A stretch of DNA of 64,000 nt from Escherichia coli O127:H6 str. E2348/69 (GTDB lineage Bacteria; Pseudomonadota; Gammaproteobacteria; Enterobacterales; Enterobacteriaceae), in the NCBI RefSeq assembly GCF_000026545.1, contig NC_011603.1; one strand, 5' to 3'. Of the stretch, positions 45,001-51,000 are shown in pieces. The position numbers were made by a program. Positions within the stretch are counted from its first letter, which is position 1; each line of letters begins with the position of its first letter.

Positions 45001-48000
45001 CAAGGGAAGTCAGAATGACACCTGCGGCATCAGCACTCACGGTACGGTCAAACCAGTTTGCACCGTTCACCATGTGGAAACGGTCGCCATCCGGCATCAT
45101 GTAACCGCCACCGTCCGGCAGGCGGATGAAGTGCCAGAATCCGCCTTCATATTCCGGCATCATTTTTTTCGCCAGCGCGTATACAGACGCTTCGGCATAC
45201 AGAAAATCCTGACCAAACAGGTAAGGCAGAAAAGACAGACGGTCGCACTCTTCAACGTTCAGAGTGACAGATTTCGCATATTGCATGATGTTTTCCTCCG
45301 TTGTTCACATATTCCGCGACACCGGGCGGTGCCGTGCCTCCATAAAAGCCGGGCGATAAGGCGGGGATGCAGGGGCGCAAGGGAAGCCGCAGCCTGACGC
45401 ACACGGCTGACGGGAGTTGGAGGGTGAGACCGCGAAATCTGAGCGGGTGAACGACCGGAAAATCACGGCAGACGGGAAGAAGGGACCGGGTGACCGCAGC
45501 GGCAAAGCGTACCCTTGCATCCCCGCCAGCCCGGCTAAGATGGAGGCACGGCACCGCCCGCACACGACACGGCGGCCACAGAGCTGAAAACCCACAAGGC
45601 CATGCCCCGCATGGCCGGGTAAAGCGGAGCCGGCGGCGACTTCCTTGTATAATTATCCCACACAGAACAGATTGGTTCTGTAGTTAACACTGGGGCAAAG
45701 CAGGCCGGCGACTTCCTTTGGCCAGTGAGCCAGTCAAAAAGATAATTGCCGCTTTGCCTCTCTTTTCAGTGTATGACCGAAGGGTATCTGTGGCCCCGTA
45801 CATCGGTGAGCCTGAATTTGCAAGGTAGGTCAGCTGAACTAACCGAGGAAAAGCTATGACTGTGTACATTGGAATTGATATTGCCAGAAAGAAGTTTGAT
45901 GCAGCTGAACTCTGTGACGGGGCTTACAGGTGTAAGACATTTGAAAACACCCCTGCTGGATTTACAGCGCTATACGACTGGCTTAAAGCGGGCAGCATTC
46001 CGGACATTCATGTATGTCTTGAAGCAACAGGCAACTATGGTACTGCCCTCGCTACTTTTCTGTACGAAAAGAATCTGAAAGTGAGCGTAGTTAATCCCGC
46101 AAGAATCAAGGGATTCGCGGCTTCTGAACTTACCCGAACCAAAACCGACAAAGCTGACTCCAGACTGATTGCACGCTTTTGTAAAGCCGCGCAGCCAGAT
46201 CCATGGAGACCTGTGCCCGCCCCCGTCAGAAAACTTCAGGCTCTAGTGAGACGTATCGGTGCGCTGAACGGCATGCTCAGAATGGAATGCAACCGTCGTG
46301 AAAATGCAGATATTGACGCTCAGGAATCGGTTGAACGCATGATCAACCATTTAAAGATGGAGCTTGAATCGGTGCGCCGGGCAATAAAAGAGCATATCAG
46401 TAATGTTCCTGAGCTGAAAAAACAGAACGACCTCCTGCTGTCTATTCCGGGTATTGGCACTGTTTCAGCCAGCCTGATACTGTCCTTCATGGCCAGTAAA
46501 GAGTTCACAAAAGCTAAGGAAGTGACCGCTTTTCTGGGGCTCAATCCCCGCCATCACCAGTCCGGAACGTCGGTTAGGGTGAAGTGGCACACTGAATTTG
46601 GCCACCTGAACAGAGGTGATATGCTCACCTCAGAACAACACAGGTGCTCCAATGAAAAAAAGAAATTTCAGCGCAGAGTTTAAACGCGAATCCGCTCAAC
46701 TGGTTGTTGACCAGAACTACACGGTGGCAGATGCCGCCAAAGCTATGGATGTTGGCCTTTCCACAATGACAAGATGGGTCAAACAACTGCGTGATGAGCG
46801 TCAGGGCAAAACACCAAAAGCCTCTCCGATAACACCAGAACAAATCGAAATACGTGAGCTGAGGAAAAAGCTACAACGCATTGAAATGGAGAATGAAATA
46901 TTAAAAAAGGCTACTGTAGATTCAATCTGTCAATGCAACACCCCTTTCAATTATCTCTTTCGGTGTTTTGAACTTCAGTGTCTTTCTCGGTCTGTTGTTT
47001 AGCTGAGCAGCAACCAGATCTAGTTCATGTTGAGTATATTGGGCAAGACATATCTTTTTAGGAAAGTACTGCCGAATTAGCCCATTTGTGTTCTCATTTG
47101 TTCCCCGCTGCCAAGGACTCTGAGGATCGCAGAAGTAAACTTTAACGCCGGTGCTGACAGTAAATTCTAGATGTCTGGCCAGTTCCATTCCTCTGTCCCA
47201 TGTCAGTGATTTTCTGAGTTCTGACGGTAAACTCAGGAATTTGTCGGTAAGAGCCTGATTTACTGAGACAGAATCTTTGCCCCTGAGTCTGAGGATGATC
47301 GTATAACGTGATTTTCGGTCTACAAGTGTGGCTATATGAGAGTTTTTTGTACCTGAGACTAAATCGCCCTCCCAATGCCCCAGAGAGCGTCTGTTATCGA
47401 TATTTCGGGAACGTTCGTGAATTGGTGTTCCGTTCACTATGTTAATCGTACCTCTTTCGCCTTTGCGGGTATGACGCCTGCCATGGCGAAGGCTATGCGA
47501 CCGTCGCAGATGCTGTATATTCAGGTGGTGTAGCGCTTCACGGCTACGAAAGTACAGCGTTTTATAAATTGTCTCAGGTGATATTCGCAGCGTTTTTTGA
47601 CGTGGTTTTGTTCGCCTTAACCATCCTGATATTTGCTCTGGAGACCATTTCATCTCCAGCTTTTCCAGAACAAGCTTTCGCAATGGTAAATTTTGATCCA
47701 GTAAGCACGGTTTTGGCCTTTTCGCCATTCTGTTGGCTCGGTTATTAGCATCAACAGCTTTGTAATAGCGTCTGCCCCGATTACGCTGAACTTCACGTGA
47801 GATCGTCGAAGGACTGCGATTCAGCTCAGTAGCTATCGCACGAATGCTCATTTTGGCTGACAAACCAGCTCGTATCTCCTCGCGCTCAGACAGTGTCAGG
47901 TGAGCTACAGCCCGCTTACGCTCATGGGGTTTTATGCCGCCAGTATCCCTTAACATAGTGAAGATCGTTCCGGGTTTTGAACCCAGGATATTCGCTATTT

Positions 48001-51000
48001 CACTGAAGCCTGTTCCGTTCTTCCATAGTTCAAAAACAGAGGCTTTTTCCTCTGCTGTAAATGTTCGTCTCATTCAAAAAACCTCCGCAACCCCATGTTT
48101 TCACATAACTGTTGCGTTGACCAATTGAATCTACAACCGCGCTCTTGATGTCAGACTCCCTGAACAGTTCTCGATAATCGGGAAACTCAGAGCGCATTAT
48201 CCTGTGGCCACACTCTGCCATGTGTTCGGGGTTCATCGCAGCAGCTACAGATACTGGAAAAACCGTCCTGAAAAACCAGACGGCAGACGGGCTGTATTAC
48301 GCAGTCAGGTACTTGAGCTACATGGCATCAGCCACGGTTCGGCCGGAGCAAGAAGCATTGCCACAATGGCAACCCGGAGAGGCTACCAGATGGGACGCTG
48401 GCTTGCTGGCAGGCTCATGAAAGAGCTGGGGCTGGTCAGCTGTCAGCAGCCGACTCACCGGTATAAACGTGGTGGTCATGAACATGTTGCTATCCCTAAC
48501 TACCTTGAACGGCAGTTCGCCGTGACCGAGCCAAATCAGGTGTGGTGCGGTGATGTGACCTATATCTGGACGGGTAAGCGCTGGGCGTACCTCGCCGTTG
48601 TTCTCGACCTGTTCGCAAGAAAACCAGTGGGCTGGGCCATGTCGTTCTCGCCGGACAGCAGGCTCACCATGAAAGCGCTGGAAATGGCATGGGAAACCCG
48701 TGGTAAACCCGGCGGGGTGATGTTCCACAGCGATAGTAATAATGCCGGTATCAGTTTTTATCATCACTCTGTTTGCTGTTTAACCAGACTGGTGTGATTA
48801 CTGATGCAGTGAAGACCTTCCCGCATCCTGACTCACACAGCGATCGACCCTTTGTGTCCTGCCCTGGACCTGTCGGTTGCCGGAAGCGCCTTCATGCGAG
48901 GCGTCTCCTCACCGATGCGCGTGACTCAAGAAGGGCCTGACGGTTTGTCTCGTTACTGTCCTGTCCGGGTTATCTGTCTGGAGATTCAACTCTGTTTCCT
49001 CACAGGAGCTCTGTTATGGCAGGTAAAGTTACGGAAACCGCTGTTGTGGGTGGCGTGGATACACATAAAGATCTGCACGTTGCCGCTGTCGTAGATCAGA
49101 ACAATAAAGTTCTGGGGACCCAGTTTTTCTCCACAACACGGCAAGGTTACCGGCAGATGCTGGCATGGATGACTTCGTTTGGGGCATTAAAGCGAATTGG
49201 TGTTGAGTGTACAGGCACCTATGGATCAGGTCTGCTTCGCTATTTACAGAATGCCGGGTTAGACGTTCTTGAGGTGACTGCGCCAGATCGGATGGAGCGA
49301 CGCAAACGGGGTAAAAGTGACACGATTGATGCTGAATGTGCCGCTCACGCCGCATTCTCCGGAATAAGAACCGTCACACCCAAAACGCGCAATGGCATGA
49401 TTGAGTCTCTGCGGGTATTAAAAACTTGCCGAAAAACAGCAATATCAGCCCGCAGAGTCGCTCTCCAGATTATCCATTCCAATATTATCTCTGCCCCGGA
49501 TGAATTACGTGAACAGCTCAGAAATATGACGCGCATGCAGCTCATCAGGACTCTGGGATCCTGGCGGCCTGATGCCAGTGAATACCGCAATGTTACCAAC
49601 GTTTATCGTATTTCATTAAAGTCCCTTGCCCGACGCTATCTCGAGTTACATGACGAAATCGCTGATTTGGATGTCATGATTGCGGCAATTGTCGATGAGC
49701 TGGCGCCTGAACTGATTAAACGTAATGCTATTGGATACGAAAGCGCTTCGCAGTTGCTGATCACGGCAGGAGACAATCCCCAACGATTAAGATCAGAATC
49801 AGGTTTTGCGGCACTGTGTGGTGTCAGCCCTGTTCCCGTATCTTCAGGAAAAACGAATCGTTATCGACTTAACCGGGGTGGAGATCGTGCTGCAAATAGT
49901 GCACTTCACATCATTGCCATCGGACGTTTGCGAACTGACGATAAAACGAAGGAATATGTCGCCAGACGAGTAGCGGAAGGGCATACAAAAATGGAAGCAA
50001 TACGCTGCCTGAAGCGCTATATCTCACGCGAAGTTTATACATTACTGCGTAATCAAAACAGGCAGATCAACAGCATCCCGATAACGGCTTGACTCTTAGA
50101 AGGGCGTCCAGGGTAGTCATTATACGAGCAGGCAGTTCCGGCAGTTATTGTGGCGATACCAGATCACGCAGAGTATGAGCCGGCGCGGAAACTGCTGGGA
50201 TAACAGCCCAATGGAACGCTTCTTCAGGAGTCTGAAGAACGAATGGATGCCGGTGGTGGGTTACGTAAGCTTCAGCGAGGCAGCTCACGCCATAACGGAC
50301 TATATCGTTGGATATTACAGCGCACTAAGACCGCACGAATATAATGGTGGGTTACCCCCAAACGAATCGGAAAATCGATACTGGAAAAACTCTAACGCGG
50401 TGGCCAGTTTTTGTTGACCACTTCACTTCCGAAAGAAAAGCACCTGACCGGCAAGATTTTTACTCAGCGCATTGAGCGCAATAACCTGACGCTGAGAACC
50501 AGAATCAAACGGCTGGCCCGCAAAACGCTCTGTTTTTCACGTTCTATTGAGCTTCATGAAAAAGTCATCGGGGCATTCATGGAAAAATGCATGTTCTACT
50601 AATTGGATGCATCACCGTTGAAATCACAATAACGATTTTTTTGTAAATATGCTCTCACATATGTAGGAATAGACTAGGTTGGCATTGAAACACATCTATC
50701 ATGACCATAATAAAGTAATTTTTTGATATGTTTATAGTTTTATATTAATTAAAACATATCTAAAATTGATAGTTTTAAAATTGCAAAATCCATATTTTGT
50801 TTGTAATGTTTAATCTGATTATATTGAGTGGCGTTTATTATGAAAAATAAATCAGGTAATTCTTATTATAGAGAAGCGGTCGATATTCATAGCTCACTTG
50901 AGCTTTCATTTATATTGCATAAATATCATTTGCGTGTAGATGAGAAGAAATCTCGAAATGTATTCAGCGCCATACGTGATGAGCTCATCCTTGATGGGGA

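Follow-up and report, generated by a model that had tools for sequence, protein, structure and literature searches.

The IS110-family element IS621 has a REP-like chromosomal sequence as its target. For a second element of this family, ISEc21, insertion has been directed experimentally to the site CACAGCGAT/CAGGG (the slash marks the insertion point), and both the mechanism and the lack of a target duplication are published (Siddiquee et al. 2024, Nat Commun, PMC11187229). The example hosts named in that work are ISCfr6, ISEc92, and ISEc93. In K-12 an IS911 copy interrupted by IS30A has already been described (PMC9333248). Our literature searches on the IS content of pMAR2 and pMAR7 and on IS110 elements in leading regions gave nothing relevant.

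The window analyzed here, a stretch of 64,000 nucleotides in its entirety, contains a nest of five mobile-element pieces at a site on the virulence plasmid pMAR2 of E. coli E2348/69 (Table 1). A nested pile-up of insertion sequences had been read from this DNA in an earlier note, and all of its units were found at, or a few bases from, the positions given there. Comparison with pMAR2 revealed no mismatches in any compared stretch (window 1-54500) apart from a single 1374-bp insert, which is ISEc21. pMAR2 and pMAR7 both have the identical locus with ISEc21 absent and with flanks of 100% identity, and the pMAR2-plus-ISEc21 configuration of the window was found in neither of the two sequence collections searched. 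The leading-region sequence matches thousands of F-like plasmids up to 45646, where the homology ends. A module at 46580-55151, 99.9% common to one unrelated plasmid, has as its left border exactly the IRL of IS911, in agreement with the earlier view that the pile-up marks the boundary between the leading region and acquired cargo. We are confident that the region is a scar at the border of the leading region in the EAF plasmid pMAR2, produced by successive insertions together with at least one deletion or recombination event. All pieces belong to known kinds of element and lie at known or expected landing sites; the finding of the earlier note is correct but ordinary.

Table 1. Mobile-element pieces of the nested locus and the adjoining target flank, in window coordinates
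Feature	Position	Strand	Remarks
Target flank of left IS110-family element	45634..45646	+	CGGCGACTTCCTT; end of conserved leading-region sequence, upstream of ardA
Non-coding left end of IS621-like IS110-family element	45647..45855	+	starts G-TATAAT
IS621-like IS110-family transposase gene, codons 1-241 of 323	45856..46579	+	NCBIfam transpos_IS110
IS911 part a: IRL and orfA to 5 nt past A6G frameshift motif	46580..46914	+	
IS30, 1221 bp	46915..48135	-	intact 383-aa transposase 46922-48073 (-); annotated IS30 in pMAR2
IS911 part b: second AC, orfA end, orfB to second D codon of DDE (..HSD)	48136..48734	+	
ISEc21 (IS110 family), 1374 bp	48735..50108	+	no target duplication
IS911 part c: remaining orfB (QGSHY...) and IRR	50109..50425	+	
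IS1-family right-end fragment, 191 bp	50426..50616	+	InsB-like C-terminal codons and terminal repeat

The backbone of the nest is an IS911 element (46580-50425) interrupted by IS30 and ISEc21. Excision in silico of IS30, one AC, and ISEc21 yielded an element of 1249 bp that aligned without interruption, at 1249/1249 positions, with intact annotated IS911 copies of E. coli chromosomes. As had been claimed for removal of the inner elements, both reading frames were restored, namely a 100-aa orfA and an open orfB that contains HSDQGSHY and the DDE catalytic domain of IS911 (IS3 family). The two genes lie in relative -1 frames with the A6G slippery motif (A AAA AAG) at restored position 324. The restored ends, TGAAGTGGCACAC... 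and ...GTTGACCACTTCA, are those of IS911, an element of ~1.25 kb with terminal inverted repeats starting TGAAGTGG. The nesting order was upheld under test.

No 3-bp target duplication surrounds IS911, as previously noted; the left flank is GGG and the right flank CTT. The lack of a duplication is expected after deletion or recombination and has no bearing on what the element is. IS911 stands in place of the 3' third of the transposase gene of the left element, and its other side borders directly on the terminal 191 bp of an IS1-family element. IS911 is disabled because the IS30 insertion leaves OrfA without its C terminus and prevents OrfAB from being made. Three of the five pieces, namely IS911, the left IS110-family element, and the IS1-family fragment, are defunct.

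The IS30 copy has the properties of the described element: a length of 1221 bp, imperfect terminal inverted repeats of which the first 12 bp (TGTAGATTCAAT) match, and a single DDE transposase of 383 aa (NCBIfam transpos_IS30, E = 1e-81). The 2-bp AC duplication that the earlier note assigned to it within IS911 orfA is present at 46913-14 and 48136-37. The insertion point lies 5 nt downstream of the A6G frameshift motif of IS911. Of 5426 complete E. coli genomes, 1216 carry this IS911-IS30 junction, K-12-like chromosomes included, and the homologous site in IS600 is also occupied by IS30, in the opposite orientation. There appears to be a recurrent IS30 hot spot just 3' of the frameshift motif in IS3-family elements (IS911 and IS600). 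Literature searches on such a hot spot gave nothing relevant beyond the K-12 description.

The second inner element, correctly recognized beforehand as a 1374-bp IS110-family insertion in IS911 orfB, has limits that are unambiguous from pMAR2, where the element is absent and both sides are 100% identical. Its insertion separates the D codon from the Q codon in the HSDQGS (DDE) motif, and the target in the window is the published native target CACAGCGATCAGGG, located where the IS3-family DDE motif has its second D codon. There are no inverted repeats and there is no target duplication at the insertion. The element is identical at 1374/1374 positions to the chromosomal copy of an E2348/69 derivative (LT903847 1802057-1803430), the copy that was cloned and used by Siddiquee et al. 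(PMC11187229). It encodes a transposase of 358 aa (49016-50092) downstream of a non-coding region (48735-49015) in which positions 48836-48844 form the guide segment CACAGCGAT. This segment matches the left flank at the IS911 site at 9/9 positions and that of the chromosomal source site at 7/9. A junction promoter is predicted, with TTGACT (50089-94) and AATAAT (48738-43) separated by 17 bp. The transposase had no match in the PDB at E<=0.001, and an Rfam scan of 44800-51200 gave one chance-level lncRNA match and no bridge or seekRNA family.

Because it is absent from the reference pMAR2 and from pMAR7, ISEc21 represents the youngest event. Its complete identity to the chromosomal copy makes a very recent hop probable. 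ISEc21 is flanked by its own target, as excision requires. As judged by their intact transposase genes and ends, IS30 and ISEc21 look able to move. IS3-family elements may be disabled time and again by these two unrelated insertion sequences, in each case through insertion at a conserved functional sequence.

The arrangement of ISEc21 between two IS911-type flanks is common, being present in 308 of the 5426 E. coli genomes, and the IS911 flanks offer 300-600 bp of homology per side. In place of RNA-guided transposition, another IS911::ISEc21 copy could have supplied the element by homologous recombination or gene conversion. We consider this unlikely. The sole ISEc21 copy examined from the E2348/69 lineage sits in a different IS3-family element with flanks only ~70% identical to IS911, and the insert in the window is identical to this copy. 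Furthermore, the IS911 flanks in the window carry no imported polymorphisms relative to pMAR2.

The earlier note had also allowed that the nested units might be one known composite element. Such a composite, IS911::IS30::ISEc21, would have moved as a 3.8-kb unit by means of its IS911 ends, with IS911 transposase acting in trans. The same triple nest does recur with the same internal junctions in unrelated contexts, on E. coli pLKJULY7989 and on K. pneumoniae pC51_001, the latter having IS911-like and ISEc21-like parts 91-94% identical to those of the window. However, the pMAR2 and pMAR7 locus is empty of ISEc21 between perfectly matching flanks, showing that ISEc21 came separately here, and no 3-bp duplication surrounds any copy in the other plasmids checked. 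The parts have also diverged unequally in Klebsiella, with IS30 at 99.7% identity versus 91-94% for IS911 and 92.6% for ISEc21. In addition, IS30 occupies the IS600 site in the other orientation, and ISEc21 has been directed experimentally to this exact sequence. Movement as a composite is therefore very improbable, and on these sequence comparisons recurrence of the nest would be better explained by site-specific targeting. An assembly artefact, in which reads of the identical chromosomal ISEc21 were joined into the plasmid IS911, would fit the absence of the configuration from both collections but can be practically dismissed, since each junction coincides precisely with the published native target, without duplication or loss of bases, and the chromosomal copy has flanks too dissimilar (~70%) to give rise to a clean chimera.

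The piece abutting IS911 on the right had been called an IS1 fragment. Its assignment to the IS1 family stands: it matches NCBIfam transpos_IS1 (E = 2.7e-10) with an InsB-like C terminus, scoring below the whole-protein cutoff because only ~60 codons are left, and its end, ...GGATGCATCACC, has the GGTGATGC-type terminal bases of the family. It is not IS1 proper, which is ruled out by an identity of only ~71% to IS1A/B. Identity is 79-80% to ISEc30-type elements, and the best non-pMAR2-type match, among the matches listed, is a Klebsiella variant at ~87%.

The left element (45647-46579) is an IS110-family element truncated at its 3' side. The earlier note placed its start at the ORF start, 45856, and so omitted the non-coding left end; the true start is 209 bp upstream. 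Truncation of its transposase by IS911 was read correctly, with 241 of the 323 codons of intact relatives retained, followed by 34 codons read into IS911. The annotated 275-aa ORF (to 46683) is a chimera running into the IS911 IRL. The missing 3' part was found nowhere in the window, and the element is incomplete, cut at codon 241 of 323. The 241-aa remnant was recognized by NCBIfam transpos_IS110 (E = 4e-44, 151 bits against a cutoff of 140) and has 93-95% amino acid identity to the intact 323-aa relatives. An intact relative matched IS621 in the PDB (8wt6) with E = 3.6e-74, which places the element, with its DEDD/RuvC-like transposase homologous to IS621, in the IS621-like subgroup. When its peptides and its target sequence were searched for in the supplementary material of Siddiquee et al., no closely related named element turned up.

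A guide-like copy of the 13-nt left flank of this element is present at 45706-45718, within a conserved stem-loop that is a putative bridge or seek RNA. The flank ends in TT, the putative core dinucleotide. The left flank and the internal copy co-vary in four variants, including Pantoea, K. oxytoca, and Leclercia relatives; the stem-loop has only two compensatory pairs among the four sequences compared. The flanks of the relatives contained no convincing match to a right-target guide or a junction promoter, and their right flanks are variable. We tentatively suggest that the left element belongs to an undescribed IS621-like RNA-guided lineage specific for the leading-region sequence upstream of ardA/psiB, its guide being the left-flank direct repeat, although the chances are somewhat against this. 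The 72-bp left end, deleted from the E. coli copies and duplicated in the Pantoea copy, may owe both changes to recombination between the repeats. If this is true, the guide and flank repeats would provide a built-in route to immobilization of the element.

We propose the following order of events. IS911 would have landed in or beside an IS1-family element, next to gadC-like/murI-like cargo, and would subsequently have been disabled when IS30 entered its hot spot in orfA. The module bordered on the left by the IS911 IRL would then have joined the leading region at the cost of the 3' end of the IS110-family element; this step would have been either a deletion mediated by IS911 or a recombination of two IS911 copies. 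In the latest step ISEc21 would have inserted into IS911, guided by a seekRNA whose CACAGCGAT segment fits the left flank in full (9/9), and its likeliest source would be the identical chromosomal copy in E2348/69. The order of the first three steps is drawn from junctions common to a small number of plasmids rather than from a dated phylogeny.

The practical value of the nested locus is modest. Its analysis provides base-accurate element boundaries for the annotation of pMAR2-type EAF plasmids. The "IS110 family transposase" of 275 aa in RefSeq represents a truncated chimera and no real gene product. The single ISEc21 hop relative to the reference pMAR2 could be a lineage marker for E2348/69 stocks, and it is a natural instance of the published RNA-guided targeting of ISEc21, at a site with a perfect guide match. 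The IS621-like element of the leading region and the IS30 hot spot are incremental observations that could interest researchers of RNA-guided recombinases and of competition between insertion sequences.

The closest known systems differ from the window in defined ways. The EAF plasmids pMAR2 and pMAR7 of EPEC E2348/69 are identical to it in all compared stretches, and the window has one extra element, ISEc21, inside IS911 orfB. The ISEc21 of PMC11187229 shares with the copy in the window the 1374-bp length, the 358-aa transposase, the target, the lack of a duplication, and the upstream non-coding guide region; the host in the window is instead a plasmid IS911 already broken by IS30. In the K-12 IS911::IS30A arrangement (PMC9333248) IS30 has the same position in IS911 orfA, and the junction is 98% conserved in K-12-like chromosomes. 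However, the K-12-like locus examined is a hybrid with an IS600-like orfA remnant beyond IS30, whereas the window keeps both IS911 halves and the intact AC duplication. Finally, IS621 (PDB 8wt6) is of the same short-transposase subgroup as the left element, and its bridge RNA may have a counterpart in the upstream non-coding region of the left element, with the guide-like copy of the left flank in an internal loop. Unlike IS621, the left copy is without its 3' third and right end, and it targets the sequence that is conserved ahead of ardA/psiB in the leading regions of plasmids.

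The window is from plasmid pMAR2 of EPEC E2348/69. NZ_CP059841.1 matched window positions 1-45956 with zero mismatches, and identity to pMAR2 was also 100% over 42000-48734 and 50109-54500. The sole difference from pMAR2 was a 1374-bp insert at 48735-50108, whose limits cannot slide, as judged by the adjoining bases. The earlier note's reading of this region as a nested pile of insertion sequences was confirmed as a whole and its interpretation supported, with small corrections.

Coordinates and characteristics of the features (window positions, except where an L number denotes a comparison locus from another plasmid or chromosome with its own coordinates)
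Feature	Position	Remarks
F-type leading region	upstream of IS pile	DUF1380 and ardA genes
Left IS621-like element	from 45647	begins G-TATAAT; 209-bp non-coding region
Relatives with guide-like/flank repeats	L007 2700-2870; L010/L011 1490-1590	
72-bp deletion	L006, L008 2851-2870	
72-bp duplication	L007 2709-2863	
IS911	46580-50425	starts TGAAGTGGCACAC, ends GACCACTTCA
IS30	46915-48135	1221 bp; intact 383-aa transposase, minus strand; AC duplication
IS30 site sequences	46908-46914 / 48136-48142; L015 around 1813-2990; L016 2545-3730	
IS1-family fragment	50426-50616	InsB-like C-terminus
gadC-like gene, murI-like gene, ISEc30	downstream of IS pile	

When IS30, a single AC and the 1374-bp insert were removed in silico, the remaining 1249 bp encoded a 100-residue orfA and an open orfB and contained the A6G frameshift motif. 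This restored IS911 was identical, in a single piece, to uninterrupted chromosomal copies annotated IS911 (1249/1249), the strongest possible confirmation of the claim that excision restores the reading frames. IS911 is flanked by GGG on the left and CTT on the right and hence has no 3-bp target duplication, in agreement with the earlier note.

The 2-bp AC duplication that the earlier note saw around IS30 in IS911 orfA was confirmed. The 100-bp IS911/IS30 junction occurs in 1216 of 5426 E. coli genomes, K-12-like chromosomes included; in K-12, IS30A is known to interrupt IS911 (PMC9333248). The homologous site in IS600 (AAAAAAAGCAAC|AC...) also holds IS30, in the opposite relative orientation. 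In both hosts the AC duplication is the same and IS30 lies a short way 3' of the frameshift motif; an IS911'/IS30/IS600' hybrid is present in a K-12-like chromosome. Klebsiella pneumoniae pC51_001 has the same triple nest, with unequal identities to the window (91-94% for the IS911 parts, 92.6% for ISEc21 and 99.7% for IS30). This divergence, the recurrence of the IS30 junction and the occupied IS600 site lead us to favor repeated insertion at hot spots over a single composite that was inherited or moved.

To the left of IS911, the match to thousands of F-like plasmids ends at 45646. The IS110-family transposase gene beyond it breaks off at codon 241 of 323, in agreement with the claim that IS911 truncates a second such gene; the missing 3' part was not found anywhere in the window. 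The 275-residue RefSeq ORF WP_000219473.1 (45856-46683, "IS110 family transposase") is a chimera of those 241 codons and 34 codons through the IS911 left end. An intact Pantoea relative matched IS621 recombinase structure entries (E=3.6e-74). The flank ends in the 13-mer CGGCGACTTCCTT (45634-45646), which is repeated at 45706-45718, in an internal loop of a stem conserved in four variants, and flank and internal copy co-vary in four variants, including the Pantoea, Klebsiella oxytoca and Leclercia copies, as would be expected of an RNA-guided IS110-type element with a predicted guide RNA. This guide-like repeat, together with the location of all these relatives beside ardA or psiB upstream regions, suggests an IS621-like element targeting the leading region. 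Eleven copies on E. coli plasmids lack the 72-bp stretch between the repeats, and in Pantoea this stretch is tandemly doubled, a pattern that fits a guide having recombined with its own target. In E. coli relatives, a MITE-like insert of ∼255 bp also sits on the transposase stop codon; its terminal inverted repeats are GGGGGCAGTTTGGA and it has duplicated AGTGA (L006 3973-4231, L008 3973-4230).

Two identical 1552-bp copies of the IS4-like ISEc13 (984-2535 and 39558-41109) span the transfer region in inverted orientation and could mediate inversion. The leading region contains ∼300-bp repeated segments (38875-39174 and 43692-43989, 89.7% identical) and, upstream of ardA, internal inverted repeats (45320-45560), probably of the single-strand promoter-like kind that is typical for leading regions of F-like plasmids. 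Another pMAR2-like plasmid (FDAARGOS_945) has an extra 3.7-kb IS21 plus IS3-family insertion (L004 3571-7306) at window ∼45565-45571, with a 7-bp overlap; insertion sequences keep accumulating at this edge.

The proposed IS1 fragment is IS1-family with an InsB-like C-terminus, but it is only ∼71% identical to IS1A/B and 79-80% identical to ISEc30-type elements. With the inverted ISEc30 (53992-54755; only ∼79% identical) it brackets the gadC-like and murI-like genes. Excluding ISEc21, 46580-55151 recurs at 99.9% identity on an IncFIB/HI1B plasmid that is otherwise unrelated; there the left border is exactly the IS911 left inverted repeat and the left flank differs; the shared block is followed there by what we take to be an IS629-like end. 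The IS911::IS30/IS1-fragment/cargo module would therefore have formed before joining the leading region, and this joining would have removed the 3' end of the left element. The shared module and its border support the earlier note's view that the pile separates leading region from acquired cargo.

The 1374-bp IS110-family insert is ISEc21. It arrived last, probably by an intragenomic hop, since it is absent at this locus from reference pMAR2 and pMAR7 and is identical (1374/1374) to LT903847 1802057-1803430, the chromosomal ISEc21 of an E2348/69 derivative and the copy cloned by Siddiquee et al. A search of 5426 complete E. coli genomes found ISEc21 between IS911-type flanks in 308 of them. 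All components and both nestings are already described, so novelty is low; with known elements in known nestings, so is interest. ISEc21 targets codons around the DDE motif's second D in IS3-family transposases, makes no duplication and is guided by a seekRNA that its upstream non-coding region encodes, with CACAGCGATCAGGG as "native target" (Siddiquee et al., PMC11187229). Here the insertion site is CACAGCGAT|ISEc21|CAGGG, dividing HSD|QGS of orfB, and CACAGCGAT recurs in the ISEc21 non-coding region (48836-48844; left-flank match 9/9). As read from the sequence, the joined ISEc21 ends would form a putative junction promoter (TTGACT, 17 bp, AATAAT), consistent with the one reported by Siddiquee et al. 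(PMC11187229).
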